Below are positions 5,215-56,670 of a stretch of DNA of 64,000 nt, piece by piece. This DNA comes from an uncultured bacterium (GTDB taxonomy: Bacteria > Acidobacteriota > Thermoanaerobaculia > Multivoradales > J023): NCBI GenBank assembly GCA_965371445.1, contig CBDUYN010000012.1:10878-74877 (forward strand). The letters are read 5' to 3'. A program made the position numbers and the translations under genes. The notes beneath the pieces are model-generated. The model saw nothing but the letters and a program-made list of their open reading frames with translations. It made no database searches and had not been told where the DNA came from. Positions within the stretch are counted from its first letter, which is position 1. Each line of letters starts with the position of its first letter.

Positions 5215-5230
5215 ACTTGAGGAGGTTGTC

Positions 5231-7491: not shown

Positions 7492-7567
7492 GGCCATGGA
7501 CGCGAGCGCCCGCACCCTCCATCACCTTGCCGATCCGCTCGTGGCTGGTGATCACGAACTTCGAACC

Positions 7568-7906
7568 TCACTCGTCGTCGATCATGGCCCGCAGCCGGAC
7601 CAGCAGCTCAGGGAGCTCGTCATTCGCGGTCTTCCAGACGATGTCGTGATTGACGTCGAAGTAGGCGTGAATCAGACGGTTGCGCATCGACACGATGAGC
7701 GGCCACGGAATGTCCGGCGCCTCGTTTCGCGCCCCCTCGGAAAGCTGGCCCGCCGCCTCGCCGATGACCTCGATCGCGCGCACCAGTGCGAAGAGGAGCA
7801 TTCGGTCGGAGTCCAGATCCGCGCGCTGGCGGCCCGAAACGAACTCCAGCGCCGTCTCTGCCGCCTCGATCATGTGCAGCAGCCGGACTCGGTCCTCAGG
7901 CTGCAT
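7568..7906 (-). CDS. hepT: HepT-like toxin (DUF86, HEPN-fold) of a HepT/MntA toxin-antitoxin pair
   Basis: 112 aa with an R-x4-HAY-type HEPN motif ([16 protein letters not shown]). Its ATG overlaps the last codons of the upstream mntA gene. Confidence 0.8.
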
Positions 7907-8195
7907 ACTGCACCTCGGCCGAGCGAACCACCTCGGCTCGGAAGTGGCGGCTCAGATCTTGAGCGGTACGCAGGTCTACCTGGCGGCCGCCCAGCAAAGC
8001 CGTTAGCTCCGCCTCAATGGCCGCCAGTCCCAGCAGCCCGGGCGCCGCGCCAGGCTCAAACTCCACCAGCAGATCGACGTCACTGTCCGGCCGATCCTCG
8101 CCCTTCAGCACCGAGCCGAAGAGTGACAGCCGGCGGATCTGATGGCGCCGGCACAACTCAGCCAGGGCCTTCTGATCCACAGGGATTCTTTTCAT
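7896..8195 (-). CDS. mntA: MntA-like minimal nucleotidyltransferase antitoxin
   Basis: 99 aa with the pol-beta NTase motif [22 protein letters not shown]. Lies immediately upstream of hepT and overlaps it. Confidence 0.8.
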
Positions 8196-8351
8196 ATCGT
8201 CGACCTCTCGTCACAGCAGATCTGATGGCGCCGCCCGCGGCGTCTCGGTACTTTCCCGCGCCAGCCGGGAGACCTCCGGCCAACTCACCAGGCCATTGTA
8301 GGACAGCGTTTCCTGCGCGCAAACTCTCGATCGCTTAGAAGAGAGACGAAG

Positions 8352-11346: not shown

Positions 11347-11874
11347 ATGAAGAAAACGACATGCTTGTTCCTCCTCCTCGCCCTGCTGTGTGTGGCGAGC
11401 TCGTTTGCCGGGATCTCAGTGGATCACGACAAGAACGCCGACTTCTCGAAGTACAAGACCTTCACCATCAGGGAAGCGACGCCGGCGATCAATCCGCTGA
11501 TGCGCGAGCGGCTCGTCAAGGCGATCGAGGAGGGCCTCACGGCGGAGGGTCTCACGAAGGCCGACGACGGAGCGCACCTCGAGGTCGTCATCCACACCTC
11601 GCTCGAAAAGGAGATGCACATCACGGCCGACGACTGGGGCTACGGCGGCTATCGCGGCTGGCGCGGTTGGGGCGGCTGGGGTACGACGACCGTCGACGTC
11701 CAGAACGTCGCCGTGGGCACCCTGATGCTCGACATGGTCGAAACCGCTTCGGACAAGCTGGTGTGGCGCGGCATCGCGACCGACTCGATCCCCAAGAAGA
11801 GCGAGAAGCTCGAGAAGAAGGTCTACAAGGCCGTCGACAAGCTCTTCCGGCATTTTCCGCCGGAGGCGGAATGA
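11347..11874 (+). CDS. DUF4136-family secreted lipoprotein, copy 1 of 3
   Basis: Signal/lipobox (MKKTTCLFLLLALLCVASSFAG), family N-terminal signature (VDHDKNADFSKYKTFTI), RBS aaggag upstream. Paralogues at 53743..54222 (-) and 56107..56670 (+). Confidence 0.6.
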   Translation: MKKTTCLFLLLALLCVASSFAGISVDHDKNADFSKYKTFTIREATPAINPLMRERLVKAIEEGLTAEGLTKADDGAHLEVVIHTSLEKEMHITADDWGYGGYRGWRGWGGWGTTTVDVQNVAVGTLMLDMVETASDKLVWRGIATDSIPKKSEKLEKKVYKAVDKLFRHFPPEAE

Positions 11875-11950
11875 AGAGACACTGCCGCCGGAGGCGGAAT
11901 GAAGAGACACTGCCGCCGGAGGCGGAATGAAGAGACACTGCCGCCGGAGG
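11857..11950. repeat. Tandem direct repeat, 28-bp unit, 3 perfect copies plus one degenerate copy
   Basis: ccgccggaggcggaatgaagagacactg at 11857-11884, 11885-11912 and 11913-11940. A truncated fourth copy (ccgccggagg-aatgacgag) follows. Copy 1 contains the stop codon of the DUF4136 gene (PPEAE-stop), so the repeat reiterates the gene's 3' end into the intergenic region before the RBS of the next gene. Confidence 0.9.
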
Positions 11951-11980: not shown

Positions 11981-12403
11981 ATGAAGAAGAAAGCAGCCTT
12001 CGTGGCCATCCTGGCCTCCCTGGCGCTCGGCGCGGCCGGCGTCTCGGCCCAGGAAGACGTGATCGACAAAACGATCGACGCTTGTAAAGTCGAGATCGAG
12101 AAGTACTGCAGCCAGGTCACGCCGGGCGAAGGACGCCTGCTGGCCTGCTTCTATGCCCACGGCGACAAGCTCTCGGGGCGCTGTGAGTACGCCCTCTACA
12201 CCGCGGCGGCCGAGCTCGAGCAGTTCGTGGCGGCCGTGACCCACCTGGCGACACAGTGCCTGGACGACCTGGAGAAGCACTGCGCCGAGGTCGAGATGGG
12301 TGAGGGGCGCGTGGCGTCCTGCCTCCTGGAGCACAAGAAGGAGGTCACCGAGGGCTGCAGGAAGGCCATCGACGACACGGGGCTCGAAGTCGCCGACGAC
12401 TAG
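11981..12403 (+). CDS. Small secreted cysteine-rich protein with two ~55-aa Cys-rich repeats
   Basis: Signal peptide (MKKKAAFVAILASLALGAAGVSA), RBS ggagaaag. Repeat 1: C-KVEIEKYC-SQVTPGEGRLLACFYAHGDKLSGRC. Repeat 2: C-LDDLEKHC-AEVEMGEGRVASCLLEHKKEVTEGC. Confidence 0.55.
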   Translation: MKKKAAFVAILASLALGAAGVSAQEDVIDKTIDACKVEIEKYCSQVTPGEGRLLACFYAHGDKLSGRCEYALYTAAAELEQFVAAVTHLATQCLDDLEKHCAEVEMGEGRVASCLLEHKKEVTEGCRKAIDDTGLEVADD

Positions 12404-12455: not shown

Positions 12456-13025
12456 ATGAAAAGGACGCTCCTGATCACCGTCTCGCTCTCTCTCGCCTGG
12501 GCGTCGCTCGCCTCGGCCCAGGCCCCTCCCGTCGCCGCACCGACGCAGCAAAAGACCCTGGCGGCGACGATGAACGTCTACGTCTTCCCGGCCGACGGGC
12601 AGACCCCCGAGCAGCAGAACCGGCACGAAGCCGAGTGCTACGCCTGGTCGGTGAACAACACCAAGACCGATCCGTTCGACCTCGCCAAACAGGCGGAGCA
12701 GGCGGCGATGACGGCGGAGCAGCAGAAGGCGAAAGTCGAGCAAAAGACCGAGGGCGCGGGCGCCAAGGGCGCGCTGGCCGGCGCCGCCGCCGGCGCTCTG
12801 ATCGGGGAGATCGCCAGCAACGACGCCGGCGGGGGAGCGGCGTGGGGCGCCGCCGCCGGCGCGATCGCCGGGCGCCGCAGGGCGCGCCAGGCCAAGCAGG
12901 AGGCAGACCAGCAGATCGACCAGCAGACTCGGCAGGTGCAGCAGGCGTCGGCGGAGCAGATCGAGGGCTTCAAGAAAGCCTTCAGCATTTGCATGGAAGC
13001 CAAGGAGTATCTCGTGAAGTTCTGA
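12456..13025 (+). CDS. Module gene A: secreted glycine-zipper protein
   Basis: Signal peptide, RBS ggagg. Gly-zipper (GAGAKGALAGAAAGALIGEIASNDAGGGAAWGAAAGAIAG), then a Q-rich helix (QQIDQQTRQVQQASAEQIEGFKKAF). Close paralogue at 54787..55356 with ~80% nucleotide identity in places. Confidence 0.65.
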   Translation: MKRTLLITVSLSLAWASLASAQAPPVAAPTQQKTLAATMNVYVFPADGQTPEQQNRHEAECYAWSVNNTKTDPFDLAKQAEQAAMTAEQQKAKVEQKTEGAGAKGALAGAAAGALIGEIASNDAGGGAAWGAAAGAIAGRRRARQAKQEADQQIDQQTRQVQQASAEQIEGFKKAFSICMEAKEYLVKF

Positions 13026-13083
13026 ACATTCGAATCCATCGGCTACCCATGGCCGGCACCCATTTGCTCAAGGAGTCAAAGCC

Positions 13084-13527
13084 ATGACCCAAGTCATGAA
13101 ACGAGTCAACGTCATCGTCATTTCACTCACGCTTCTACTGGCGGCGAAATCGCTTTGGGCCGACGACGTCCGCGGAGCGGACCACCTGCTCTGCTCGGCG
13201 GCGCAGGTCACCGTGTGTTACGCCGACGGTGAGTGCCTCATCTCACCGCCGTGGGAGCTCAACGTGCCTCTGTTCATCGTGGTGGACCTCGAGAACAAGA
13301 GGCTCAGAACCACCGAGGCCAGTGGCGAGAACCGGACCACACCGATCAAGAATCTCGAACGCGACGGCGGCCTGATCTTCCTGCAGGGCGTCGAAAACGG
13401 CCGCGCTTTCAGCTTCGTGATCGCCGAGGAGACCGGTATGGCGTCGATCGCCGTGGCCAGGGACGGCCTGGCGGTGACGGTCTTCGGCGCCTGCACGCCG
13501 AGGCCGTCAACCAGCGGCGAGGAGTGA
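13084..13527 (+). CDS. Module gene B: small secreted 4-Cys protein of unknown function
   Basis: Signal peptide (MKRVNVIVISLTLLLAAKSLWA). Conserved block LLCSAAQVTVCYADGEC...PPWELNVP...GRAFSFVIAEETGMASIAVARDGLAVTVFGACTP. Paralogue at 54350..54766 (...AFSFVITEKSGMATIAVARDGLTVTVFGPCTP). Confidence 0.6.
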   Translation: MTQVMKRVNVIVISLTLLLAAKSLWADDVRGADHLLCSAAQVTVCYADGECLISPPWELNVPLFIVVDLENKRLRTTEASGENRTTPIKNLERDGGLIFLQGVENGRAFSFVIAEETGMASIAVARDGLAVTVFGACTPRPSTSGEE

Positions 13528-13532
13528 CCGTC

Positions 13533-16010
13533 ATGAAGCTCCTACCTTTCCTGCTCCTGCTTCCGGCGCTCGTAGCCTGCTCCCCGGCAGAAAGGGCCGG
13601 CGCTCCCGACGAGCTGCCGACCACTCTCACCGCTCAAGACGCCGGCTGGCCACGCTATTTCGCGGCCGACGGCGAGGCGGTGACGATCTACCAGCCCCAG
13701 GTCGAGAGCTGGCACCGCTACAGCCGGATCACCTTCCGGGCGGCGGTGAGCTTCACGCCCGAGGGCGCTGAAAAGCCCGTCTTCGGAGCGCTTCGCGTGG
13801 AGGCGGACACCGACACCGATCTCGAGAACCGCGGCGTGCTGCTGGGCAACATGGAGATCACGGGGTCGAAGTTCGTCGGCCTCGGCGAGGCGGAGTCCGC
13901 CGAGTGGACGCGGCGCATCGGCGGCATCCTGCCGGCGGCGCCGGTGCCGGTCGACCTCGACCGGATCCTGGCCTATTTCGAGCACACCGAGGCCGAGGTG
14001 GTGGCCGACGATCTCGCCGGCAAGGCGCCCGCCACGCCCGGCGACGAGATCGCCCACGACGCTCCCCGGATCTTCGTCAGCCAGCGGCCGGCGATCCTCG
14101 TGGTGCTCGACGGCGAGCCGGTGCTCTTTCCCGTAGAGGGCACCGCTCTCATGTTCGCGGTCAACACCAACTGGGACCTCTTCTTCCACTCCAAGGAGGG
14201 GCGCTACTACCTGCTCGACCGCGGTCCGTCCGACGAGGAGGCGGCCGGCGGTGGGGGTCAAGGCTCCTGGCTCACGGCGGCGCGGCTCGACGGGCCGTGG
14301 ACCGTGGCCGGCGAGATGCCGGGCGACTTCCTGAAGCTCGGCGACGACTGGCAGGACGTCAAGGAGAACCTGCCGGGCGCTGCGATGGCTGAGGTGCCGA
14401 CGGTCTACGCCGTGACCCGGCCGGCGGAGCTCATCGTGATCGACGGCGCGGCGGCGTCGACGCCGATCGAGGGTACGCGGCTCTTGTGGGTGCAGAACAC
14501 CGATGCCGACCTCTTCCTCTACGGCGGCGACGGCCGCTACTACTACCTGGTCTCCGGCCGCTGGTACCGCACCCAGACCCTCGACGGTCCCTGGGAGCTT
14601 GCCAGCGCCGACCTGCCGGGGGATTTCGCGGCCATCCCGGCCGACCATCCCACCGCCGGCGTGCTGGCGTCGGTGCCGGGCACCGCCCAGGCCGAGGAGG
14701 CGGTGCGCCTCGCCAAGGTGCCGACCAAGGCCACGGTGAAGCGCAGCGAGGCGACGGCCGAGGTCGCCTACCAGGGCGATCCCGAGCTCGCGGCGATCGA
14801 GGGCACGTCATCGTCCCCTGGGGGGGACCGAGGGGGGGCACCGCTGGAGTACGCCACCAACACGGCGTCGGACGTGATCAAGGTCGGCGACGTCTACTAC
14901 CTGTGCCTGCAGGGCGTGTGGTTCGTCTCCACGAGCGCCACCGGCCCCTGGCAGGTGGCCGACTCGGTGGCCCAGGAGATCTACACCATCCCGCCCTCGA
15001 GCCCGGTACACCACACCACCTACGTCCAGGTCTACGACTCGGGTCCCGACTGGGTCACGGTGGGGTACACGGCGGCCTACCTCGGACTGATGATCGCCAT
15101 CTTCGACGACGCCGCAGTGGTGGTCTACGGCACCGGCTGGTACTACCCGCCCTACGTCTACTACGGGCCGCACCCGGTCTACTACCCGTACCACCACAGC
15201 TACGGCGTGTCGGCCTGGTACAACCCGACGACCGGCACCTACGGCCGCGGTGCTTCGGTCTACGGGCCCTACGGCGGTGCCGGCCGCGCCGCGGCCTACA
15301 ACCCCCGCACCGGCACCTACGCCCGCGGTGCCGCGGCCTACGGGCCGTACGGCGGCTCGGCGACGTTCCAGGCCTACAACCCGCGCACCTCCACCTACCG
15401 CGCCGGCTACCGCTCCTACAACACGTATGCGAGCTGGGGCGAGGGCGTGGTCGAGCGTGGCGACAAATGGGCCAAGGGCGGCTACTACAGCGACTCGCGA
15501 GGCACTGTCGCCGGGGTGCGGACCTCCGAGGGCACGGGCCGCGTGGCGGTGCGCACCGACGACGGCCGGACGTTCATCGGCGGCAGCGGCAACGATGTCT
15601 TCGTCGGCAAGGACGGCGACGTCTACCGGCGTGGCAACGACGGCTGGTCGAAATACGACCAAGGCGATTGGCAGAAGGCGGAGAGCAGCGGCCAGGCTCG
15701 CCTGAGCGAGAGCCAGCGCGCCGCGGCCCAAGATCGGGCGTCGGCGGCGCAGTCGCGCGGCGGCACGACGGCGGCGGGGGTGAGCGAGAGCCAGCGCGCC
15801 GCGGCGCGCGACCGGGCTTCGCAGACGGCGCGTCCGTCCTGGGATAGAGGGGCGAGCCAAAACGACGTCCTGAACCAACTCAATCGCGATTCCCAGGCGC
15901 GATCCGCGGGCGCCCAGCGCAGCCGGGACTTCAAGTCGTCGCGATCGTCAGGCGGCACCCGCAGCCGCACGCAGAGCGGTCGCAGCCGCGGCGGGAGGCG
16001 GGGCGGCTGA
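13533..16010 (+). CDS. Module gene C: ~825-aa secreted protein with three internal ~100-aa repeats, a Tyr/Pro/Gly-rich low-complexity region and an Arg/Gly/Ser-rich (RGG) C-terminal tail
   Basis: Signal peptide (MKLLPFLLLLPALVACSPA). Repeats contain NT..DLF....DGRYYYL..GRWY....L.GPW.......P.DF..IP. Low-complexity part: GWYYPPYVYYGPHPVYYPYHHSYGVSAWYNPTTGTYGRGASVYGPYGG...YNPRTGTYARG. Tail: ...SRSSGGTRSRTQSGRSRGGRRGG. Full-length paralogue at 37990..40353 (-). Confidence 0.7.
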   Translation: MKLLPFLLLLPALVACSPAERAGAPDELPTTLTAQDAGWPRYFAADGEAVTIYQPQVESWHRYSRITFRAAVSFTPEGAEKPVFGALRVEADTDTDLENRGVLLGNMEITGSKFVGLGEAESAEWTRRIGGILPAAPVPVDLDRILAYFEHTEAEVVADDLAGKAPATPGDEIAHDAPRIFVSQRPAILVVLDGEPVLFPVEGTALMFAVNTNWDLFFHSKEGRYYLLDRGPSDEEAAGGGGQGSWLTAARLDGPWTVAGEMPGDFLKLGDDWQDVKENLPGAAMAEVPTVYAVTRPAELIVIDGAAASTPIEGTRLLWVQNTDADLFLYGGDGRYYYLVSGRWYRTQTLDGPWELASADLPGDFAAIPADHPTAGVLASVPGTAQAEEAVRLAKVPTKATVKRSEATAEVAYQGDPELAAIEGTSSSPGGDRGGAPLEYATNTASDVIKVGDVYYLCLQGVWFVSTSATGPWQVADSVAQEIYTIPPSSPVHHTTYVQVYDSGPDWVTVGYTAAYLGLMIAIFDDAAVVVYGTGWYYPPYVYYGPHPVYYPYHHSYGVSAWYNPTTGTYGRGASVYGPYGGAGRAAAYNPRTGTYARGAAAYGPYGGSATFQAYNPRTSTYRAGYRSYNTYASWGEGVVERGDKWAKGGYYSDSRGTVAGVRTSEGTGRVAVRTDDGRTFIGGSGNDVFVGKDGDVYRRGNDGWSKYDQGDWQKAESSGQARLSESQRAAAQDRASAAQSRGGTTAAGVSESQRAAARDRASQTARPSWDRGASQNDVLNQLNRDSQARSAGAQRSRDFKSSRSSGGTRSRTQSGRSRGGRRGG

Positions 16011-16060
16011 GCCGAACGAAGGAGAAGAAGGAGCCCCTCGAGAAGTACCGCGCCCGGGCC

Positions 16061-16546
16061 ATGAGCCTGGACCGCGGGGCGTCGAGCAACCTCGACATCG
16101 TGATCTACGAATGGACCACTCCGGAGGAGCGCCAGGCGCTGCTCCAGACTTTCGTCGACGGCGGTAGCGACAAGCTCTACGACGCCCTCCAAGATCAGGA
16201 CGAAAAGGGCTACGTCAAGGCGCCGAGGACGCTGGCCTACGACATGAAGTACGCCTTCCAGTTCGAGGTCGAGGGCAAGCGCCGGATCGTGCTGGCCACC
16301 GATCGGCCACTGGGCTTCATCGAGCTCACCAGGGCGTCGCGCAGCCTCGACTACAACGTGAGTCTCATAGTCTTCGAGGTCGACGCGGAGACCGGTGAGG
16401 GCGAAGGCTTCGCGATGGGCGGCGTCGAGCTCTCGGTCGACAAGGAGACCGGCCGCATCACCATCGAGCATACCGGTACCCAGCCGACGAGGCTGACGTT
16501 GGTGAAGAGGACTTTTCCCAAGGGCAAACAAGGGAAGGAGAAGTGA
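16061..16546 (+). CDS. Module gene D: small protein with a Lys-rich C-terminal tail, unknown function
   Basis: 161 aa with no obvious signal peptide. Conserved with 55388..55978 (RIVLATDRPLGFIELTRASRSLDYNVSLIVFEV...GEGEG vs RVIRAVTDRPIQIYEVMRSLRTEDYPFGVIEIRLPADGKGEG). Tails are KGKQGKEK and KEKKKKKKD. Ends 7 bp from the convergent STAND gene. Confidence 0.5.
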   Translation: MSLDRGASSNLDIVIYEWTTPEERQALLQTFVDGGSDKLYDALQDQDEKGYVKAPRTLAYDMKYAFQFEVEGKRRIVLATDRPLGFIELTRASRSLDYNVSLIVFEVDAETGEGEGFAMGGVELSVDKETGRITIEHTGTQPTRLTLVKRTFPKGKQGKEK

Positions 16547-35553: not shown

Positions 35554-37743
35554 TCAAAAACTGCGCCCGACGATCAGATAGAATTTGTCGCGGAAATCGC
35601 CGGCCGTCCCATAGGCCAGGTAGACGGGTCCGAGCCGTGTCCTGGCCCCCGCGAAGATCGTCGTCGAGTGGCGCAGGTCGCTCAGGTCGGCCTGCGAGAC
35701 GTCGTCCCACATGTTGCCGGCCTCGAGCCAGCCGCCGAAAAGCTTGTCGTGCCAGACCTCGCGGTAAAAGCCGAGCCGCGCCACCCCGTAGAAACGGCCG
35801 CGTAGAGAATCGTCGGGAAAGCCGCTCAAAGAGGTCAGGCCGCCGATCGCGAGCTCGGCCCAGAAGGGAGTGTCGTCCGACGCCCAGCCACCGCTTAAAC
35901 TGGCCATGATCGTGTTGCGTCCCCAGCTCCAGAACTCGAGCCAACGGGTTTCGACGGTTTCGTACTCGAAGTCCGCGCCCAAATCGTCGAGCGACGCGAA
36001 GGCTTCGAGGAACGCCGTCGCTCCGACCCGGGGAAATTCGACGTCGTCGAGCCGGTCGACCCGCGCCAGAAGCCGAATCCCCGCGAACTCGACGTCGGAA
36101 AGGTCCTCGAAGGGAAGGGACCCCGAAGTGACGTGGATCGATCCCCGTCCGCGTACGAGACCGAGCCGGACCTCCGCCGTACGACGGGCTTGCACGCCCA
36201 GCTCGAGCCGGAGCTGGCCCCGCTGGAGGTCGGTCTCCGCGATGGTCTGGTCGTCTTTGTAGAAGGTCGTGGGCGTTGTTCCGGCTTCCGCGGTCACCGA
36301 GGCGAACCACTTGCCGTCGAAGTCGAGCGGCTGGTAGTACTCGGAAGTGAGCTCTCGGGGCCGGCCGAGGAGGAGGTCGGTGCGGATTTCTCCCCCCCGG
36401 GAGTTGAGGCCGGTCGTGAGCAGGTTGATGAGAAACGAAGTTCGGAAGTCTCCGTCGAGATCCGAGGAGAGGTTCAAGCCGAAGCGGAGGTAGTTGGGCC
36501 CCCAGGGCTTCTCCTGGGTGTGGATGACCAGGGCGGTCTTGCCCTCGTGTCTCTCGAGGGCGAAGGAAACCTGTTCGAAGTGTCCGAGGCCGTAGATCCG
36601 GGCGAGGTCCTCGGAGAGCGCGTCGAAGTCGAGGACTTCGCCGGCTTGCATCCGGATCTGGTCTTCGATGATCCTGTCGTCGACTCGCTCGTTGCCTTCG
36701 AATCGAATCTCGTCGATGGTCGGCGGGGTCCTGCGGTGACGCCGGTGACGCGCTTGATACTCCCGGTACTCCTCTACCGAGACTCCGAGAGGACGCAGCA
36801 GCTCCGCTTTCGCCCGCGCCTCGACGATTCCGGCTTCGAAGATCTCCGGCAGGCCGCCGAATGCGAGCGTCCCGAACTGGCTGACTCTCGGGTGCAGCAC
36901 GATGTCCGCGGCCGCCAGCTGCGGCTCCATGTTCTTGCGGATCAGCATGCGGTTCGTCTGGTTCTGGATCTGCACCAGCGAGCTCACCTTGCGCGACGAG
37001 AGAGGTGCCCCGAGGTCGATGGCGATGACGATGTCGGCGCCCATGGCGCGCACCACGTCGACGGGGACGTTGTTGGTCACTCCGCCGTCGACCAAGAGGC
37101 GGCCGTCGAGCTCGACCGGAGAAAAGACGGTAGGGATGGCCATCGAGGCCCGCATCGCGGTGGCGAGGTTGCCTTTCGCCAGCACCGCGGGCTCGCCCAC
37201 CTGGATGTCGGTGGCCACCGCCCGGTAGGGGATCGGAAGCTGGTCGAAATCGCTGACGTCGGCCACCGGCAGGGTCAGGGACTGGAGGAGGAAGAAGAGC
37301 TTCTGACCCTCCAGGAGGCCGCTCGGCCATTGGAGCTTCCACTTCTTGACGCCCGCCTCGAAGTCGAGGAGGTAGCGCTGGGAGTCTTCCTTGCGCCGGA
37401 AGGAGAGGTCCTGCCGGGAGGTCTGGTCCTGCATGGCGTCGCTCCAGTCGACGGCGAAGAGGACCTCTTTCAGCTCCTCGGCGCTCATGCCCGAGGCGTA
37501 GAGCCCGCCCATGATGGAGCCCATGCTGGTCCCCGCGACGTAGTCGACCGGGATGCGCAGCTCCTCCAAGACCAGGAGCACCCCGATGTGGGCGCCGCCC
37601 TTGGCGCCGCCGCCGCCGAAAGCGATGCCGATCTTCGGGCGCTCACCGTCGTCTCCCGCGGCCGGATTCGGCACGAGGAGCAGCAAGAGCAGCAGCGGTA
37701 GGGTTCGCCTCCGGGAGGACGCCGTTCGTCGTCTTAAGGACAT
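35554..37743 (-). CDS. PlpD-like patatin phospholipase fused to POTRA / Omp85 beta-barrel (type Vd secretion architecture)
   Basis: 729 aa. Signal peptide. Patatin motifs GIAFGGGGAKGGAHIGVL and GTSMGSIMGG (GxSxG). A catalytic Asp region later. C-terminal beta-barrel ending ...FYLIVGRSF. Confidence 0.75.
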   Translation of the reverse strand: MSLRRRTASSRRRTLPLLLLLLLVPNPAAGDDGERPKIGIAFGGGGAKGGAHIGVLLVLEELRIPVDYVAGTSMGSIMGGLYASGMSAEELKEVLFAVDWSDAMQDQTSRQDLSFRRKEDSQRYLLDFEAGVKKWKLQWPSGLLEGQKLFFLLQSLTLPVADVSDFDQLPIPYRAVATDIQVGEPAVLAKGNLATAMRASMAIPTVFSPVELDGRLLVDGGVTNNVPVDVVRAMGADIVIAIDLGAPLSSRKVSSLVQIQNQTNRMLIRKNMEPQLAAADIVLHPRVSQFGTLAFGGLPEIFEAGIVEARAKAELLRPLGVSVEEYREYQARHRRHRRTPPTIDEIRFEGNERVDDRIIEDQIRMQAGEVLDFDALSEDLARIYGLGHFEQVSFALERHEGKTALVIHTQEKPWGPNYLRFGLNLSSDLDGDFRTSFLINLLTTGLNSRGGEIRTDLLLGRPRELTSEYYQPLDFDGKWFASVTAEAGTTPTTFYKDDQTIAETDLQRGQLRLELGVQARRTAEVRLGLVRGRGSIHVTSGSLPFEDLSDVEFAGIRLLARVDRLDDVEFPRVGATAFLEAFASLDDLGADFEYETVETRWLEFWSWGRNTIMASLSGGWASDDTPFWAELAIGGLTSLSGFPDDSLRGRFYGVARLGFYREVWHDKLFGGWLEAGNMWDDVSQADLSDLRHSTTIFAGARTRLGPVYLAYGTAGDFRDKFYLIVGRSF

Positions 37744-37989: not shown

Positions 37990-40353
37990 TCAGCCGCCCC
38001 GGCGTCCGCCGAGGCGTCCGCCGCCCATGCGGCCACCGCCCATCGAGCGTCCGCGTGAGCCGCTCGAGTAGCCGCCCTGCGAGCGCCAGTTGTCGTAGCG
38101 TCCGCTGTTGACGTTGCCACGCTGGCGACCCGACTGGCTCCGGTTGAGGTCGCGGATGACATCGCTCGAGCCGCGCGAGCCGGCACGGTCGCGTACCGCG
38201 TCGCGCTGAGCGTCGCTGAGCCCCGAGCCGGCACGGTCCCGCACGGCGTCGCGTTGCTCCGGCGACAGCCCGTCGCTGACCTTGTCCCAGCCGCCACCCT
38301 TGCCGCCGTGCTTGTACCAGCCGTCGTCGCCGCGGCGATAGACGTCACCGTCACGGCCGACGTAGAGGTCGTCCTTGCCGCGCACGAATCCGGCCCGCCC
38401 GTCGCCCGTGTCGACGACCCCGCCGGCGCGTCCGCTCGAGTCGCGAAAGCCGCGGACGCTGCCCCGGGCGTCGCTGTAGTAGCCCGACTTGAGCCACTGG
38501 TCGCCGCGCGAGACGACACCCTGGCCCCAGCTCCCGTAGGCGTCGTAGGAACGGTAGCCCGCCGCTCCCACGCCGGTGCGCGGGTTGAAGGCGGCACCGT
38601 AGGCGGAACCGCCGCCCGCGCCGTAGGCGTAGCCGCCGCGGGCGTAGGTCCCGGTCGTCGGGTTGTAGGATGCGCCGAAGCCGGCGCCCCCGTAAGGACC
38701 GTAGTAGGCGTAGCCGCGGCCGTAGAACCCGGTCGACGGGTTGTACCAAGCACCGGCACCGTAGGTGTAGGGGTAGGAGTAGTAGATCGGATAGGGGTAG
38801 TAGAACGGATCGTAGTAGTAGTAGGGCGAGTAGTAATAACCCGTCCCCCAGACCACGCAGCCCCAGGAAACGTAGACGCCCATGTAGCCCGGCGTGTAGC
38901 CGTAGACCACCGTCTCAGGCGTCGAGTCGTAGGCGTAGACGTAGGTCGTGTGGTGGACCGGCGACTCCGACGGGATCGAGTAGATCTCCTTGGGGACTTC
39001 CGGGGCGACCGTCCACGGTCCCGTCGGGGCCGCGGCGAGGAACCACACACCCTTTTGACAGAGGTAGTAGGAGTCGTCGCCGACGCGGATGACGTCGGAG
39101 GCGGTGTTGATGGCGTAGGCGAGCTCCGTGCCCTCGATGTCCCGGAACTCGGGGTCGCCGACGTACTCGACCTTCACCTCCTTGGGCGCGTCCTCGCGGC
39201 TGACCACGGCGACGGTCGGGATCTGCGCCTGGAGGATCGCCTCCTCGGCCTGCGGCGTCCCCGGCACCGACGCCAGGACCGCTCCCTTGGCGTGGTCCTC
39301 GGGGATGTCGGCGAAGCCGTCGGGGAGCTTGCCGGTAGCCGCCGACCAGTCCCCTTCGAGGTCGTCGTTCTTGAACCAGCGGCCCGCCACCAGGTAGTAG
39401 TAGTGGCCGTCGTCGATGTGGCGGAAGAGATCCACCTCGGTGTTCTCGACGAAGAGGACCGGCGTGTCGGGGACCGGCACCAGCTTGGGCTCGCCTTCGA
39501 TCACGATGAGCTCGGCGGGCGCGGTGGAGACGAAGACCGCGGGGACGTTCTTCGGCGAGATCTTGGTGCCGGGGACGTGGATCCTCACCTGGCGGAAGTT
39601 GTCGTTCATAGGAAGCTTCTTGAACGCCTTGGGGAGCTTCTTGGCGGCGCTCCAGGGACCCTGGAGCGCCGGGGCGGTGAGCCAGCCCGTCTCCTTGCGG
39701 AGATAGAGGGTGGTCTTGCCCTTCTCGTACTGGAAGAGGTCCCAGTTGGTATTCGCGGCGTAGCTTAAGTCGTCGACGCCCGAGGGGATCCAGGCCGGGT
39801 CGCCGTTGACGTTGACCAAAACCGCCGGCTTCGTGCTCACGAAGATGGCCGGCGGCTTGTCGTTGAGCTCGACCTTGCGGCCCTGGACCTCCGACTTCGA
39901 GATCCCGGCGAGGACCCTGTCGAGCGACACGGCGATCGGTTTCTCAGGGAACGTCGAGCGGACAATTTCCCGGACTCGTTCCGGGGAGGTGCCGTCGATC
40001 TCCGGGATGCGGATCTCGGCGAGCTCGAGGTCGTGGATGAAGACGGTCCGGGTATCCATGTGGGTGTCGGTCTTCGCCACCAGCTTGACCGCTCCGGCGA
40101 CGCCCTCCTCGGCACCCGGCGCGGTGAGCATCACGGCCGCGTAGGCCTCCATCCTGAGGTAGTCGTCCCAGCTCCGGATCTGGGGCTGGTAGACGACGAG
40201 GCGGTAGTCCTCGCCGGTGAATTCCCGGGGCCAGCCGAGGTTGGGCCGGGCCTCGGCAGCGTCGGCCGGCGCGGTTTCTTCCTCGGAGAGGAGGGGAAAA
40301 GCTCCTGCCACGAGCAGGGCGAAGAGAAGAAGGGTGAGAGCTCTGCGGATCAT
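37990..40353 (-). CDS. Orphan paralogue of module gene C (787 aa, secreted, Tyr/Pro/Gly-rich region and RGG tail)
   Basis: Signal peptide (MIRRALTLLLFALLVAGAFPLLS). Collinear similarity to 13533..16010 throughout (NTNWDLFQYEKGKTTLYL; DLFRHIDDGHYYYLVAGRWF; YNPSTGFYGRGYAYYGPYGGAG...). Tail ...GGGRMGGGRLGGRRGG. Confidence 0.7.
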   Translation of the reverse strand: MIRRALTLLLFALLVAGAFPLLSEEETAPADAAEARPNLGWPREFTGEDYRLVVYQPQIRSWDDYLRMEAYAAVMLTAPGAEEGVAGAVKLVAKTDTHMDTRTVFIHDLELAEIRIPEIDGTSPERVREIVRSTFPEKPIAVSLDRVLAGISKSEVQGRKVELNDKPPAIFVSTKPAVLVNVNGDPAWIPSGVDDLSYAANTNWDLFQYEKGKTTLYLRKETGWLTAPALQGPWSAAKKLPKAFKKLPMNDNFRQVRIHVPGTKISPKNVPAVFVSTAPAELIVIEGEPKLVPVPDTPVLFVENTEVDLFRHIDDGHYYYLVAGRWFKNDDLEGDWSAATGKLPDGFADIPEDHAKGAVLASVPGTPQAEEAILQAQIPTVAVVSREDAPKEVKVEYVGDPEFRDIEGTELAYAINTASDVIRVGDDSYYLCQKGVWFLAAAPTGPWTVAPEVPKEIYSIPSESPVHHTTYVYAYDSTPETVVYGYTPGYMGVYVSWGCVVWGTGYYYSPYYYYDPFYYPYPIYYSYPYTYGAGAWYNPSTGFYGRGYAYYGPYGGAGFGASYNPTTGTYARGGYAYGAGGGSAYGAAFNPRTGVGAAGYRSYDAYGSWGQGVVSRGDQWLKSGYYSDARGSVRGFRDSSGRAGGVVDTGDGRAGFVRGKDDLYVGRDGDVYRRGDDGWYKHGGKGGGWDKVSDGLSPEQRDAVRDRAGSGLSDAQRDAVRDRAGSRGSSDVIRDLNRSQSGRQRGNVNSGRYDNWRSQGGYSSGSRGRSMGGGRMGGGRLGGRRGG

Positions 40354-51507: not shown

Positions 51508-53082
51508 CTACCGTCCGACGGACGAATCTGCCGGCAACGTGAAGTGGAACGTGGCGCCTCGGTCGTCGTTCTCGTAGGCCCGGATCCGGCCCTGGTGCAC
51601 CTCGAGGATCGAGCGGACGATCGCGAGCCCCATCCCCATGCCGTCCGCCTTCGTGGTGTGGAACGGTTCAAAGAGCCGCTCCGGCTCCTGGCCGCCGAAG
51701 CCGGCCCCGAAGTCACGCACCGAGACACCGACTCCCTCCCCGGGCTCGTTCTCCGTGCGGAGGACGAGCCTCCGTTCCTCGGCCGGCAGGTCGGCCATGG
51801 CGTCGAAGCCATTCAAGATCAGGTTGAGAAGCACTTGCTGGAGCTGGACCCGGTCGCCGCATACCGGCGGCAGTCCCTCGTCGAGCTCGAGCTCCAAGTC
51901 GACCCCCTTCAAGAGGGCGTCACTGCGCAGCAAAGGCAGTACCTGACGGATCACCTCGTTCATTTCCAGAGGCTCCAGCTGCGGCTCGTGTTTCTGGAGC
52001 AAAGCGCGCAGCCGGCGAATGACCTCGGCCGCCCGCCGGTTGTCGGCGACGATGTCTCCGAGGATCTCGCCGATCTCCCCGAGGTCCGTTTCGCCGCTTT
52101 CCAGGAAGCGCTGGGCGGCGCGGGCGTTCGATCCGATGGCGGCGAGGGGCTGGTTGAGCTCGTGGGCGATGGCCGCGGTGAGCTCGCCCAGTGTGGCCTG
52201 GCGTCCGACGTGCGTCAGCTCGTCCCGGAGATGGCGCAGCTCCTCGTTCTTGCGCTTTCGCTCCGTGACGTCGGTTTGGATCCCGACGTAGTGGGTGACG
52301 GTGCCGTCGGCACTTCGTATCGGCGAGATCCGCAGCAGGTTCCAGAAGGGGGTCCCGTCTTTGCGGTAGTTGAGGATCTCGTCCTGAAACGTCTCGCCGT
52401 GGGCTATGGTGGCGCGGATCGCGGCCAGGGTCTCCGGATCGGTGTCGGGGCCCTGCAAGAACCGGCTGTTCTGTCCCAGGACCTCCGATGCCTCATAGCC
52501 GGTCAACCGGGTGAAGCTTTCGTTGACATAGCTGATGTACATGCCCTCGACTCGCGCGTCCGTGATGACGCAACCGGAATAGAGCGCCTCGATCGCCGCC
52601 GACTTCAGACGGATCTGCTCCTGCGTCCGCCGCAGGTCGGTCACGTCGCGTGCGGTTCCCCAGACTCGCAGAACCTTGCCGTCCTGGATCGTGCCTACGA
52701 AGTTGTTCAGAAAGATCCTTTCCGTTCCGTCCGCGGCCCGCTCGACGGTCTCCTCATCAGTCATCCGGTAACCCGAGCGAATGGTCTCGAGCAGGAAGGG
52801 AACGCTGGTGGGCAGGGACCGGGGGAAGAAGGTCTCCAGCCGCCATCCGAGGACGTCCTCGCGGGTCGTGGCGTAGGCGACGGCAAAGGTCTCGTTGGCC
52901 TCGACGATCCGGGCATGCTGGTAGAGGAGATCGACCTGCTCCATCTCCGGCAAGTCGATCGGGACGCCCTCCTCCATCTCGATGCACCAGATGGCCTCGG
53001 TGCTGTTGGCGACGAAGCTGCGGTAGCGCTCGTGGTTGATCGCGAGCAGCTCTTCGGCGGCGTCTGTGGATTCTCGACCCAT
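51508..53082 (-). CDS. Cytoplasmic multi-PAS sensor histidine kinase
   Basis: 524 aa with at least two PAS/PAC segments. HisKA H-box (HELNQPLAAIGSNARAAQRFL). HATPase N, G1 and G2 boxes (NLILNGFDAM...; VRDFGAGFG). Confidence 0.8.
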   Translation of the reverse strand: MGRESTDAAEELLAINHERYRSFVANSTEAIWCIEMEEGVPIDLPEMEQVDLLYQHARIVEANETFAVAYATTREDVLGWRLETFFPRSLPTSVPFLLETIRSGYRMTDEETVERAADGTERIFLNNFVGTIQDGKVLRVWGTARDVTDLRRTQEQIRLKSAAIEALYSGCVITDARVEGMYISYVNESFTRLTGYEASEVLGQNSRFLQGPDTDPETLAAIRATIAHGETFQDEILNYRKDGTPFWNLLRISPIRSADGTVTHYVGIQTDVTERKRKNEELRHLRDELTHVGRQATLGELTAAIAHELNQPLAAIGSNARAAQRFLESGETDLGEIGEILGDIVADNRRAAEVIRRLRALLQKHEPQLEPLEMNEVIRQVLPLLRSDALLKGVDLELELDEGLPPVCGDRVQLQQVLLNLILNGFDAMADLPAEERRLVLRTENEPGEGVGVSVRDFGAGFGGQEPERLFEPFHTTKADGMGMGLAIVRSILEVHQGRIRAYENDDRGATFHFTLPADSSVGR

Positions 53083-53089
53083 GATCCGG

Positions 53090-53737
53090 TCATTCGGAGT
53101 CGAGCCCGAGCTTCCCGGCCATGCGGACGAGCTCGGCCAGCGAGCCGGCCTGCATCTTCTCCATGAGCCGTCCGCGGTGGACTTTGACGGTTTTCTCGCT
53201 CACCCCCAGCCGGGCGCCGACCTGCTTGTTCAGGAGGCCGGTGACGACGAGCTCGAAGACCTGCCGCTCGCGGGTGGTCAGGGTGTCGAGGCGCTCGTCG
53301 AGAGCTTCGCGCTCGACGCGTTCGGCCCGGGTCCTGCGGCCGCGTTCGAGCGCCTCGCCGACGGCGGCGAGGAAGCGTTCGTCATCGACGGGCTTCTCCA
53401 GGAACTCGGTGGCGCCGGCCTTCATCGCGGCGACCGTCGAGGGCACGTCGCCGTAGCCGGTAAGGAAGATGACGGGGAGGTCGCGACCTCTCCGGCGAAG
53501 CTCATGCTGGAGCTCCAGGCCGTTCGTCGACGGCATCCGAAGGTCGAGCACCAGGCACCCGGAGCGTCCGGCCGCCGGTGTGTCTAGGAAGGCCTCGGCC
53601 GACGGGTAGGTCTCGACGGCGAGCCCGGCGGAACGGACGAGCCGTGACAGGGCGCGCCTCACCGAGGCGTCGTCGTCGACGACGACGACGACGTCGTCAG
53701 CGGCCAGGGGCTCTCTCTCCGGTACGGCTTCCATCAA
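53090..53737 (-). CDS. NarL/FixJ-family response regulator (receiver plus LuxR-type HTH)
   Basis: VVVVDDDASVRRAL..., phospho-acceptor D in CLVLDLRMP, and HTH LTTRERQVFELVVTGLLNKQVGARLGVSEKTVKVHR. Confidence 0.85.
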   Translation of the reverse strand: MMEAVPEREPLAADDVVVVVDDDASVRRALSRLVRSAGLAVETYPSAEAFLDTPAAGRSGCLVLDLRMPSTNGLELQHELRRRGRDLPVIFLTGYGDVPSTVAAMKAGATEFLEKPVDDERFLAAVGEALERGRRTRAERVEREALDERLDTLTTRERQVFELVVTGLLNKQVGARLGVSEKTVKVHRGRLMEKMQAGSLAELVRMAGKLGLDSE

Positions 53738-53742: not shown

Positions 53743-54222
53743 TTACGGCGCTTTCACCTCGGGGAAGCTCTTGAACATCTTCTTGACGACCTTGCGGACG
53801 ATGCTCTTGGCTTTGCGCGCCTTCTCGGGCTGCACGTCAGTCGCCTGGCCGCGCCAGACGAGCTGGCCCATCGACGCTTCGTAGACCTCGACGACCAGGG
53901 CGACGTAGAGGAAGGTCGGGTTCTTGCCGGCATGGGTGCGGACGTAGAGGTCGGCGGCGCCGTCGGAGCGCTGCCAGCCGCCCGCGGCGAAGTGGGCGTC
54001 GACCGTCGCGCGGATCTCCTTCTCGATCTCGTGGTTGGCGGCCGGCGTGCCCTTCTGCCAGGCGTAGGTGCGAAGGGGCGAGAAGTCGAGGCTGCCGTAG
54101 TATTTGACCTCGACGGTGAGCGCGGCGGCGGAGCCGGCCGCGAGGAGAGCGAGGGTGAGGAGGAGAAGCGTCTTCGTCTTCATGGCGTCGTAGAGTCTGG
54201 CTGGAATCGGCGCCCGGGTCAA
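53743..54222 (-). CDS. DUF4136-family lipoprotein, copy 2. Lies 5 bp upstream of the FixJ-type regulator gene on the same strand.
   Basis: Signal peptide (MKTKTLLLLTLALLAAGSAAA), YYGSLDFSPLRTYAW motif, C-terminal VRKVVKKMFKSFP. Confidence 0.6.
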   Translation of the reverse strand: MTRAPIPARLYDAMKTKTLLLLTLALLAAGSAAALTVEVKYYGSLDFSPLRTYAWQKGTPAANHEIEKEIRATVDAHFAAGGWQRSDGAADLYVRTHAGKNPTFLYVALVVEVYEASMGQLVWRGQATDVQPEKARKAKSIVRKVVKKMFKSFPEVKAP

Positions 54223-54349: not shown

Positions 54350-54766
54350 ATGAGACAACTACGCGGCCTTCTTGCCGTGCTGCTGATTCTGGCCCCCGGG
54401 CCGCTCCTGGCCGACGACCTGACCGGCGCGGAGAAGATCCTCTGCACGTCGGCGCAGGCGACGCTCTGCACCGCGGACGGGGAGTGCACCAGCGCGCCGC
54501 CCTGGGAGCTGAACATCCCCAACTTCATCTTGATCGACTTCGCCGCGAAAGAGCTCGGCACCACCGAAGCGAGCGGCGAGGCGCGCAAGACCGAGATCCG
54601 GAACGTGACCCGGGAGCACGGCCTGATCGTGCTCCAGGGCTACCAGGACGGCCGCGCCTTCAGCTTCGTCATCACCGAGAAGTCCGGCATGGCGACGATC
54701 GCCGTGGCCCGCGACGGGCTCACCGTCACGGTCTTCGGTCCCTGCACGCCGTCCCCCTCGAAGTAA
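54350..54766 (+). CDS. Module gene B', paralogue of 13084..13527
   Basis: See 13084..13527. Signal peptide, ILCTSAQATLCTADGECTSAPPWELNIP...GRAFSFVITEKSGMATIAVARDGLTVTVFGPCTP. Confidence 0.6.
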   Translation: MRQLRGLLAVLLILAPGPLLADDLTGAEKILCTSAQATLCTADGECTSAPPWELNIPNFILIDFAAKELGTTEASGEARKTEIRNVTREHGLIVLQGYQDGRAFSFVITEKSGMATIAVARDGLTVTVFGPCTPSPSK

Positions 54767-54786: not shown

Positions 54787-55356
54787 ATGAAGAAGAACCT
54801 TTGGATCGCCTTGACGATCGCCGCCCTCTGCGTCTTCCCCAGCCTGGCGCAAGGCCAGGCCGTCGAGGAGCCTACGGGCCAGAAGACGCTTGCCGCCACG
54901 ATGAACGTCTACGTCTTCCCGACGGAAGGCCAGGGCACCGAGCAGCAGTCGAAAGACGAGGCCGAGTGCTACAGCTGGGCGGTGAAGAACACCGGCTCCG
55001 ATCCCTTCGAGCTCGGCAAGCGGGCCGAGCAGGCGCAGCAAGCCGCTGCGCAGCAAAAAGAGCAGGTCGCTGCGGCCGGACAAGGCGCGGGTGCCCAAGG
55101 CGCGGTGAAAGGCGCCGTGGTCGGCGCCCTGATCGGCGAGATCGCCAGCAACGACGCCGGCGAAGGCGCCGCCTGGGGCGCCGCCGCGGGGATGGTCGGG
55201 GCGCGGCGTAGGACCCGCAGGGCCAAGAGCCAGGCCAACCAGCAGATCGACCAGCAGGCCCAGCAGGTCCAGCAGGCGACGGCCGAGGACCTCGAGAACT
55301 TCAAGAAGGCCTTCAGCGTCTGCCTCGAAGCCAAGAAGTTCCTCGTCAAATTCTGA
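54787..55356 (+). CDS. Module gene A', glycine-zipper protein, paralogue of 12456..13025
   Basis: Signal peptide. KTLAATMNVYVFP...EAECYSWAV. GAVVGALIGEIASNDAGEGAAWGAAAGMVGARRR. QQIDQQAQQVQQATAEDLENFKKAFSVCLEAKKFLVKF. Confidence 0.65.
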   Translation: MKKNLWIALTIAALCVFPSLAQGQAVEEPTGQKTLAATMNVYVFPTEGQGTEQQSKDEAECYSWAVKNTGSDPFELGKRAEQAQQAAAQQKEQVAAAGQGAGAQGAVKGAVVGALIGEIASNDAGEGAAWGAAAGMVGARRRTRRAKSQANQQIDQQAQQVQQATAEDLENFKKAFSVCLEAKKFLVKF

Positions 55357-55387: not shown

Positions 55388-55978
55388 ATGAGGCTGAAAC
55401 CGGCTCTTTTTGCCGTCGTTTGTGTCCTGGTGGCCCTGGCGCCGCCGCTCGCCGCCCAAGCCCCGGAGAGGATCAAAGGGCGTGTGATCGACGCCGGTTC
55501 CTCGGTGCCGGGTCCGAACAGCGCCTTCTTCACCCTACACGTCGACGAGTACTCGACGGCCGCCGACGTCCAGGAGCTTGCCGCGCTCCTGGCCAAGGAA
55601 GGATCCAACGCGCTGCTCAAGAAGCTGCGCAAGATGGACCACGGGTACATCCGCATCGGCCGGAGCCTCGGCTATCCCGTCGCCGTCATCCGTTCGATCG
55701 AGACGCCGGAAGGACGCGTAATCCGCGCCGTCACCGACCGTCCGATCCAGATCTACGAGGTGATGCGGAGCCTGCGCACGGAGGATTACCCCTTCGGCGT
55801 GATCGAGATCCGGCTGCCCGCCGACGGCAAAGGCGAGGGGACGCTCATCGCCGCCGCACAGGTCGAGTACAACAAGGACGGAGTCATCGAGATCGAAAGC
55901 TTCGGGATCCAGCCTTTCCGGCTGATGAACGTCGAGGCGGAGAAGGTCAAGGAGAAGAAGAAGAAAAAGAAGGACTAG
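55388..55978 (+). CDS. Module gene D', paralogue of 16061..16546. This copy has a signal peptide and a poly-Lys tail.
   Basis: MRLKPALFAVVCVLVALAPPLAAQA. Conserved core with D. Ends KVKEKKKKKKD. Confidence 0.55.
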   Translation: MRLKPALFAVVCVLVALAPPLAAQAPERIKGRVIDAGSSVPGPNSAFFTLHVDEYSTAADVQELAALLAKEGSNALLKKLRKMDHGYIRIGRSLGYPVAVIRSIETPEGRVIRAVTDRPIQIYEVMRSLRTEDYPFGVIEIRLPADGKGEGTLIAAAQVEYNKDGVIEIESFGIQPFRLMNVEAEKVKEKKKKKKD

Positions 55979-56106: not shown

Positions 56107-56670
56107 ATGCACTTCTTCACCGACCGCCGTCCCTTTCCCGTCCTTGCCCTCGTCCTTACGACGCTCCTCCTGGCGACTCCGGCCGTGGCCAAAGATCTGG
56201 GGACGAAGTACGACAAGAACGCCGATTTTTCGACCTACAAGACGTTCAAGTGGGACCAGGAGTCACAGAAGCCCCGCGGGCCTCGCGTCTCGCCGGGAGG
56301 CGACGTCGATCTCATGATCCGCGAGCACGCGACGGCGGCGCTTCAAGCGAGCGGCTTGACGGCGTCCGAGGAGGAGGCGGATCTCCTCGTCGGCTACGAC
56401 GCCGCGGCCATCGAGGTCATGAACGTCGAGTCGGTCACCAACTACGAGGCGCGCCGCCAGCAACCCATGGGAGGGATCGACTGGGTGATGGACGGCACGA
56501 TGAGCTCCTACGTCGACGGGACCCTGGTGATCACCTTGACCGACGCCAAGACCGGCAAAACGGTGTGGACCGGCTGGACCACCGAGAAAATCAAGAACGT
56601 CAGCAATCCTCACAAGCAGGTGCGCAAGATGGTCCGCAAGCTGCTGGGAAGGTTTCCGCCGAAGAAGTAG
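56107..56670 (+). CDS. DUF4136-family lipoprotein, copy 3
   Basis: Signal peptide (VLALVLTTLLLATPAVA). KYDKNADFSTYKTFKW. C-terminal VRKMVRKLLGRFPPKK. Confidence 0.6.
   Translation: MHFFTDRRPFPVLALVLTTLLLATPAVAKDLGTKYDKNADFSTYKTFKWDQESQKPRGPRVSPGGDVDLMIREHATAALQASGLTASEEEADLLVGYDAAAIEVMNVESVTNYEARRQQPMGGIDWVMDGTMSSYVDGTLVITLTDAKTGKTVWTGWTTEKIKNVSNPHKQVRKMVRKLLGRFPPKK

Follow-up and report, generated by a model that had tools for sequence, protein, structure and literature searches.

Comparative analysis points to a lineage-specific juxtaposition of independent exported envelope families at a four-gene acidobacterial locus

Four consecutive genes, which we call A, B, C and D, lie together on the plus strand of a 64,000-nucleotide stretch of contig CBDUYN010000012.1 from an uncultured member of the Acidobacteriota (assembly GCA_965371445.1); this whole stretch, with a G+C content of about 66%, is referred to as the window, and all coordinates are given within it. 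A first-pass annotation of the window had described the four genes as a dedicated envelope or extracellular system, duplicated as a set. We find that the genes and their duplication are real, and that their organisation across other genomes is better described as a lineage-specific juxtaposition of independent Sec-exported envelope families than as a fixed four-part system. The genes of this first module are as follows.

12456..13025, plus strand: A, an exported glycine-zipper protein of 189 residues (Pfam PF13488), with a family consensus drawn from 64 sequences.
13084..13527, plus strand: B, an exported protein of 147 residues with four conserved cysteines and a predicted 8-stranded up-and-down beta-barrel.
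13533..16010, plus strand: C, a predicted lipoprotein of 825 residues (lipobox LVAC), which starts MKLLPFLLLLPALVAC.
16061..16546, plus strand: D, a member of 161 residues of a family with a TDRPI motif (family hidden Markov model, HMM, E 6.2e-48), apparently 5'-truncated.

The four reading frames lie where they were first placed, all on the same strand, with intergenic gaps of 58 bp (A-B), 5 bp (B-C) and 50 bp (C-D). No terminator-like site was found on the plus strand between 11000 and 17000, which is compatible with co-transcription of the genes but does not prove it. As families, A to D are Sec-exported, and searches of Pfam, NCBIfam and PDB sequences gave no match for B, C or D, in keeping with their original description as exported envelope proteins to which no function could be assigned. 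Each gene also has a second copy in the window; A', B' and D' form a second module and C' stands elsewhere.

54350..54766, plus strand: B', 138 residues, 61% identical to B.
54787..55356, plus strand: A', 189 residues, 62% identical to A.
55388..55978, plus strand: D', 196 residues, with a signal peptide and a Lys-rich tail.
37990..40353, minus strand: C', a paralogue of C with 787 residues and an ordinary signal peptide (BLASTP 45% identity, E 1e-172).

The paralogy of all four genes with these second copies, at 54-56 kb and 38-40 kb, is far above chance and held under proper alignment, with protein identities of 33-62% and BLASTP E-values from 5e-17 to 1e-172. C and C' share 45% of their residues over 787 columns and 66.9% of nucleotides over 1280 nt; for A and A' the protein E-value is 4e-49 and for B and B' it is 5e-61 (72.4% of nucleotides over 344 nt), and D and D' are 33% identical as proteins (E 5e-17) and give no blastn match. 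The nucleotide identity between A and A', first put at about 80%, measures 75.7% over 481 nt. The second copies are arranged differently from the first: the second module reads B'-A'-D' and contains no C, module 1 has the order A-B, and C' has no A, B or D beside it. When the N-termini were read by eye, signal peptides were seen in A, B, C, C', A', B' and D', and a lipobox, among A to D and the DUF4136 proteins of the window, only in C.

To place these genes in a wider context we scanned six-frame translations of two sets of loci with HMMs built for A to D and for recurrent neighbour families (the HMM for A from only two sequences): 80 metagenome loci centred on B, and 80 genome loci centred on C with 10 kb to either side, the best of at least 584. 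A adjoins B in 71 of the 80 metagenome loci, on the same strand in all 71, with a median gap of 27 bp and a gap of at most 150 bp in 68; the order is B then A in 68 loci and A then B in three, so that module 1 has the rarer arrangement. Because A stands beside B on the same strand in 71 of 80 loci, the B-A pair is the conserved unit. Seven of the nine loci that lack A have less than 450 bp of sequence past B. Of the 80 loci centred on B, 4 contain C and 4 contain D; conversely, of the 80 centred on C, 3 have A, 1 has B and 11 have D within 10 kb. Checked in this way against other genomes, the four families for the most part do not travel together; C is a separate and much more widespread family, and D a third large family.

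These scans place A to D in a loose guild of exported envelope genes whose order and make-up vary. The guild also includes DUF4136 proteins, DUF481 and Omp85 barrels, patatin-Omp85 proteins and sulfatases, families that tend to lie close to one another in Acidobacteriota and other diderm phyla. In other genomes DUF4136 genes turn up near C more often than any other family, with 22 of 80 loci having one inside 5 kb, and the association with DUF4136 noticed in the window extends beyond it. An Omp85, DUF481 or PlpD-type outer-membrane protein, or b239 (an exported protein of 239 residues), lies within 5 kb of C in 18 of 80 loci and a sulfatase in 7 of 80; for a small Omp85-superfamily gene (Pfam E 6.9e-9), in which the Omp85 domain was matched alone with no POTRA, the counts are 5 loci at up to 400 bp from C and 10 of 80 at up to 5 kb, and no more than 6 of 80 loci have a barrel gene of any of these types inside 400 bp. 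In 31 of the 80 C loci none of the tracked families occurs within 10 kb, a count that leaves out two families scanned separately, gz265 (an exported glycine-zipper family of 265 residues) and hel170 (an exported helical protein of 170 residues with no Pfam match). These two lie 1.4-3 kb from C in about 13-15 loci, mainly of Vicinamibacterales type (for example at 6980-8354 in locus L039 and at 7179-8554 in L008), and hel170 also abuts the B-A pair in several metagenome loci.

Around B-A the company is similarly mixed. A sulfatase stands directly beside the pair in six loci (L082, L103, L111, L112, L139 and L147), b239 follows it in four (L087, L092, L100 and L164), and a patatin-Omp85 protein related to one in the window lies directly upstream of it in two (L139 and L156); DUF481, DUF4136 and D also occur near it. 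Individual arrangements include DUF4136-B-A-D-DUF4136 in L093, which resembles module 2, B-A-DUF481-C in L082, which holds one of the closest orthologues of C (65% identity), B-A-C in L113, C-B-A in L018, and D-B-A-DUF481-C in L089, the only other locus with all four families. We note that in L082 an Omp85 gene and a gene for an AsmA/YhdP-like protein of 1257 residues, a TamA/TamB-like pair, occupy 90-5070, just upstream of sulfatase-B-A-DUF481-C.

The window itself holds the same mixture of genes as these other loci: b239, four sulfatases, a patatin-POTRA gene after C' and three DUF4136 genes. Its further features of note are listed here.

11347..11874, plus strand: DUF4136 protein 1, 175 residues, with a signal peptide (Pfam PF13590, E 1.8e-36, 126.3 bits).
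11981..12403, plus strand: an exported cysteine-rich repeat protein of 140 residues (Pfam PF00839, Cys_rich_FGFR, E 8.9e-16).
35554..37743, minus strand: a patatin-POTRA (PlpD-like) outer-membrane protein of phospholipase type (Pfam Patatin E 1.7e-33, POTRA E 4.8e-8), directly downstream of C'.
51508..53737, minus strand: a PAS histidine kinase and a LuxR-type response regulator (Pfam).
53743..54222, minus strand: DUF4136 protein 2 (Pfam E 2.1e-17, 64.4 bits).
56107..56670, plus strand: DUF4136 protein 3 (Pfam E 1.7e-26, 93.9 bits).

All three DUF4136 proteins score above the Pfam gathering cutoff for PF13590 (32.8 bits). They flank modules 1 and 2, as first described, but not the lone C', whose nearest DUF4136 gene is more than 13 kb away; nor do they look like lipoproteins, as all three N-termini, read by eye, show ordinary signals of the signal-peptidase-I type and no lipobox. 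The cysteine-rich protein has no relative in the 81 C loci scanned. A perfect 28-bp tandem (CCGCCGGAGGCGGAATGAAGAGACACTG, 3.4 copies, 100% matches) at 11857-11950 covers the stop codon of DUF4136 protein 1 and the spacer before the cysteine-rich gene, and could be a recent slippage event or an assembly artefact. Beyond D, and converging on it, an open reading frame of 1131 residues occupies 16554-19949 on the minus strand, where the G+C content is lower (0.61-0.63); its single Pfam match, to nSTAND3 of the STAND NTPase family, is weak and below cutoff (E 2.7e-4). The kinase and regulator genes abut module 2 and are co-directional with the gene for DUF4136 protein 2. Four genes for secreted arylsulfatases lie at 30094-33105 (plus strand) and 48505-50920 (minus strand), three with the active-site motif CTPSR and one with CTAGR; the copy at 50009-50920 is just 303 residues long and appears internally deleted, and the two on the minus strand run in the same direction as the kinase and regulator genes and the gene for DUF4136 protein 2 beside module 2. 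A homologue of b239 lies at 4451-5211 on the plus strand, with a frame that appears to shift near its 3' end, and at 40456-43728 on the minus strand a membrane protein of 1090 residues appears as an unusual fusion of amino-acid-permease-like, universal-stress-protein and DUF389 regions.

C is the largest of the four proteins and the one with the most elaborate architecture. The three internal repeats recognised at first reading lie at residues 174-266, 285-372 and 394-486, with hhalign probabilities of 99.8, 99.0 and 98.9%, and in the AlphaFold model one strand pattern recurs in all three. Also present, as picked out at the outset, are a Tyr/Pro stretch, repeats of the YNPxTGTYxRG/YGPYGG motif and an Arg/Gly/Ser tail, all of them conserved across 113 homologues; the motif is at the same time a 78-bp tandem in the DNA (2.3 copies), and the number of YNPxTGTY units differs among homologues. 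The model, built from the 113-sequence alignment (predicted local distance difference test, pLDDT, 78.4; predicted template modelling score, pTM, 0.73), has in order a confident N-domain (residues about 40-150), the three beta-rich repeats, the Tyr/Pro stretch at low confidence, about eight long antiparallel strands (581-675), a very confident small beta module that carries Trp (689-715), helices, and a disordered Arg/Gly end. In the N-domain the model shows a long curved beta-sheet around a helix, the hallmark of a TULIP-type fold, and is YceB/TULIP-like. The beta-meander at 581-675 did not qualify as an integral outer-membrane beta-barrel: of its 74 strand residues only 7 are aliphatic or Phe/Met and 13 carry a charge, and the strands have no hydrophobic face. 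At the C-terminus, Arg or Lys fills two or more of the last four positions in 92% of 118 homologues, and 42 of the 118 end in exactly GGRRR, with no hydrophobic segment before the Gly/Arg end; a lipobox-like motif occurs in only 10 of the 118. To our knowledge this near-invariant Gly/Arg C-terminus (in C, for example, residues 815-825) is like no known sorting signal.

The family to which C belongs is large, with 2815 matches among 8000 scored candidates and at least 584 confirmed stretches from the scan of species-representative genomes. The best 80 loci come from at least seven phyla, among Acidobacteriota, Myxococcota, Verrucomicrobiota, Bacteroidota (Chitinophaga, Flavobacterium), Gemmatimonadota, Rokubacteria, and Alpha- and Gammaproteobacteria, and cultured carriers include Edaphobacter modestus DSM 18101, Chitinophaga skermanii DSM 23857 and Terracidiphilus gabretensis S55. 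In locus L050 (4766-8163) the match to C is divided between two frames (4766-6802 and 6770-6964), and two D genes stand in tandem after it. A protein of 785 residues beside DUF481 in L084 was considered as a homologue of C and found by jackhmmer to be unrelated. Homologues are named 'hypothetical protein', apart from two auto-named 'Carbohydrate-binding family V/XII' by UniRef, a name for which a literature search found nothing. C has no NCBIfam match and no Pfam match even at E<=10, none of 28 homologues has a Pfam match at E<=0.01, and a search against PDB sequences gave nothing significant. The tentative suggestion that C might be DUF3300 (PF11737) is thereby set aside; DUF3300 would share with C just the general type of a large exported protein with a basic tail. 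We likewise rejected an assignment to carbohydrate-binding module families 5 and 12 (CBM5/12), to which the automatic UniRef name is the sole pointer: Pfam CBM_5_12 gives no match at E<=10, and a profile of residues 683-722 (the DxYAGxDGNVYRR..GW..W module) found no carbohydrate-binding module in the PDB, the best hits being designed propeller blades at E 0.15.

D proved to differ from its first description in one respect. Homology to the D family extends upstream of the ATG of the module 1 gene to about 16031, where …EPLEKYRARAMSLDRG… aligns with …PERFxGxxxDxxG… of the family, and the frame is open from 15848 but contains no ATG, GTG or TTG and no hydrophobic segment. A strong AGGAG at 16029-16033 has no start codon within normal distance. 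The protein had been listed as exported, and no signal peptide is visible in it, although one is present in 35 of 35 aligned relatives. Because the start codon and signal peptide present in all relatives are absent here, we read the module 1 gene as a 5'-truncated copy; the sequence points to truncation by deletion, and the gene is possibly decaying. A fusion of C and D by frameshift or readthrough, for which D is open in the -1 frame from 15848, was considered and dismissed: the upstream stretch is not D-like, C ends in the usual Gly/Arg terminus of its family, and other loci have no C-D fusions. A profile search found 3191 D family representatives at the 50% identity level; the best 150 relatives listed are 150-282 residues long with one matched stretch each, and 45% of D relatives have an Arg- or Lys-rich tail. 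D matches no Pfam or NCBIfam model, and its PDB matches reach only E 0.024-0.57 and are driven by the signal peptide.

The two members of the conserved pair are better defined. A scores 28.2 bits against PF13488 (cutoff 25) over residues 107-143, and the glycine-zipper segment is conserved in 64 family members; NCBIfam gives weak matches to YiaD and PRK11280. The consensus of 64 relatives has an N-domain, KTLAAT..VYVFP..GQ...QQS.DEA.CY.WAV.NTG.DPF, then the zipper, a basic Gln-rich helix and the C-terminus FKKAFSvCLEAK.Y.VK[F/Y], usually with an aromatic residue last, and it includes two conserved Cys. We considered whether A could be a lipoprotein of the SlyB/Pcp type and rejected this, as there is no Cys at the cleavage site (...SLASA\|QAPP in A and ...SLAQG\|QAV in A') and the NCBIfam score is 23.5 against a cutoff of 175. 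B is unusually conserved, with more than 500 matches at 54-79% identity and four invariant Cys, and no Pfam model, NCBIfam model or PDB sequence was matched. Its AlphaFold model is a calycin/avidin-like, 8-stranded up-and-down antiparallel barrel of about 100 residues. Membrane barrels (OmpW, NspA and OmpA) score similarly against this model, and the fold match therefore identifies topology only.

It is possible to assemble these features into a mechanism. B would be a periplasmic calycin/avidin-like barrel, probably stabilised by disulfides, that probably binds either a partner peptide or a small hydrophobic ligand; A, by analogy with other glycine-zipper envelope proteins, may use its central glycine-zipper hairpin for membrane association or oligomerisation, and the two proteins would act jointly at the outer membrane or in the periplasm. 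C, which its lipobox LVAC would anchor to lipid in this organism but which would be soluble in most relatives, may form an elongated periplasmic or outer-membrane-associated scaffold. Its modelled YceB/TULIP-like N-domain could provide a lipid-type pocket, the three aromatic-rich repeats together with the Tyr/Gly beta-meander a binding surface, and the Arg/Gly tail, most often ending in GGRRR, a contact to an anionic envelope polymer or to a partner. The part of this reading that concerns gene organisation is well supported and the mechanistic part is weak; for the whole, mechanism included, we consider the balance between right and wrong to be even. Several points weigh against it. The ligand, the cellular location and all protein-protein contacts are inferred; the likeness to YceB spans about 110 of the 825 residues of C (about 13%), the other 700 or so being without counterpart; and Foldseek found nothing in the PDB for C at E<=1e-3, and no fold relative for the rest of the protein. 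Sulfatases may simply be numerous in such genomes and so inflate part of the guild, the neighbour counts being raw ones. Metagenome contigs are mostly short, so that a B locus without C or D tells us little. Conversely, the link between C and glycine-zipper proteins may exceed 3 of 80 loci, because gz265 lies near C in about 13 more and the HMM for A was built from two sequences.

The original proposal, that A to D are obligate partners in one structure forming a dedicated and duplicated envelope or extracellular assembly, draws on their common strand, the gaps of 5-58 bp, the lack of a plus-strand terminator-like site between 11000 and 17000, the duplication of the gene set in the window, and the presence of all four families in L089 and of three in L082, L113, L018 and L073. 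The co-occurrence counts contradict it: most of the 80 genome loci hold C with none of the other three inside 10 kb, most B-A loci with enough flanking sequence lack C and D, and a single other locus unites all four families. Moreover, C is missing from module 2 and C' stands apart from any copy of A, B or D, the order varies (A-B-C-D, B-A-D, D-B-A-x-C, C-B-A), and D in module 1 is truncated, and we regard an obligate assembly as highly improbable. A related idea makes C the cargo or partner of an outer-membrane beta-barrel (small Omp85, DUF481 or patatin-Omp85), displayed at or tethered to the surface in a loosely two-partner-like manner, as an adhesin or matrix protein. The small Omp85 genes near C would fit this (within 400 bp in 5 loci and within 5 kb in 10 of 80), as would DUF481 between B-A and C in L082 and L089, the patatin-POTRA gene directly after C', and the variable number of YNPxTGTY repeats, which is a feature of many surface proteins. 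Yet only 6 of the 80 C loci have a barrel gene as close as 400 bp, the beta-meander with its few aliphatic or Phe/Met and many charged residues (7 and 13 of 74) is not membrane-like, C matches no Pfam family, those of the two-partner secretion (TPS) domain included, and the small Omp85 protein has no POTRA match. Two-partner secretion in the strict sense (TpsA/TpsB) we reject on these same grounds, and the looser form is very unlikely in our estimation.

Two further explanations concern what might hold the neighbourhood together. If the proteins were an accessory set for polyanionic sulfated glycans, then sulfated polysaccharide would be bound by the aromatic repeats of C and by basic tails on A, C and D, in the service of nearby sulfatases and barrels. 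Six loci do have a sulfatase immediately next to B-A, and 7 of the 80 C loci have one no more than 5 kb away; the window has four sulfatase genes (three with CTPSR), C and 45% of D relatives carry tails rich in Arg or Lys, the Tyr and Trp contents of C are high (6.2% and 2.7%), and UniRef attached its automatic carbohydrate-binding name to two homologues of C. Against this stand the lack of a CBM_5_12 match in C at E<=10 and the result with the Trp-module profile (best E 0.15, designed propeller blades); most C loci have no sulfatase nearby and the adjacency counts are raw ones, and basic tails would equally bind lipopolysaccharide, phospholipid or nucleic acid. We think such a role unlikely. 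Alternatively, the genes may be mechanistically unrelated members of an envelope-stress or adaptation regulon, co-located through joint switching by neighbouring two-component systems. A sigma-54-type response-regulator cluster occurs in 22 of 81 C loci, the PAS kinase and LuxR-type regulator abut module 2 and run in the direction of the DUF4136 gene, and hel170 is found repeatedly next to B-A as well as next to C. The literature on DUF4136 records no known function for it; in Burkholderia it is the last gene of a two-component 'biofilm-regulating' operon (PMC5192318). But no regulator adjoins module 1, two-component genes are common in these genomes, and a regulon would account for the co-location and not for what any protein does; we hold it to be unlikely as well. 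We prefer a lineage-specific juxtaposition of independent exported families.

With the corrections given above, the observation from which this work started is real: the proteins are exported, the genes are duplicated and DUF4136 is associated with them, while the dedicated four-gene system and the assignment to DUF3300 are not supported. There is no evidence for a new machine, and the apparent four-gene 'system' should not be propagated in annotation. What the locus does contain is a set of uncharacterised envelope families that merit family definitions. For B, C and D, neither Pfam nor NCBIfam has a model, no relative has a solved structure, and the only name in use is 'hypothetical protein'. 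Should C, given its TULIP-like domain and conserved GGRRR terminus, turn out to handle a lipid or polymer of the envelope, it would be a new outer-membrane component in Acidobacteriota and other poorly studied diderms; otherwise the result is still of use for annotation, since it allows the definition of two new domain families and of one conserved gene pair. It is conceivable, if speculative, that C and its recurrent partners (DUF4136, A or gz265, D, hel170, and Omp85 or DUF481 barrels) make up an unrecognised multi-phylum envelope system, possibly in the form of a periplasmic tether or carrier for lipid or glycan, with GGRRR-COOH as a new recognition or anchoring tag and B-A as a new two-protein ligand-binding unit of the outer membrane. 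Since all the families are exported and C occurs in several cultured strains, they are open to experiment.

Several known systems bear comparison with these proteins. The DUF4136 (PF13590) exported proteins are neighbours of A to D and not homologues. The small Trp/Tyr-bearing beta modules of C, such as DxYAGxDGNVYRR..GW.KY..G.W., may at most be reminiscent of CBM5/12 modules. The modelled N-domain of C resembles in fold YceB (DUF1439, a TULIP lipid-binding fold, PDB 3l6i), itself a protein without known function, and C gives no DUF1439 sequence match in Pfam. The model of B is of the same fold type as the calycin/avidin-like barrels (avidins, lipocalins, FABPs, Cap15 and the C-domain of NHBA, PDB 5hal), but B is only 5-14% identical to these in sequence and has four conserved Cys of its own. 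Finally, A has in common with glycine-zipper envelope proteins (PF13488; SlyB/Pcp, YcfJ and YiaD type) a central GxxxG-type segment above the Pfam threshold. Unlike the SlyB/Pcp-type lipoproteins it has an ordinary signal peptide, and unlike the glycine-zipper envelope proteins in general it has no OmpA-like or beta-sandwich domain, carries its own conserved N-domain (VYVFP..GQ...QQ..DE..CY.WA) and C-terminal motif, and is paired with B.

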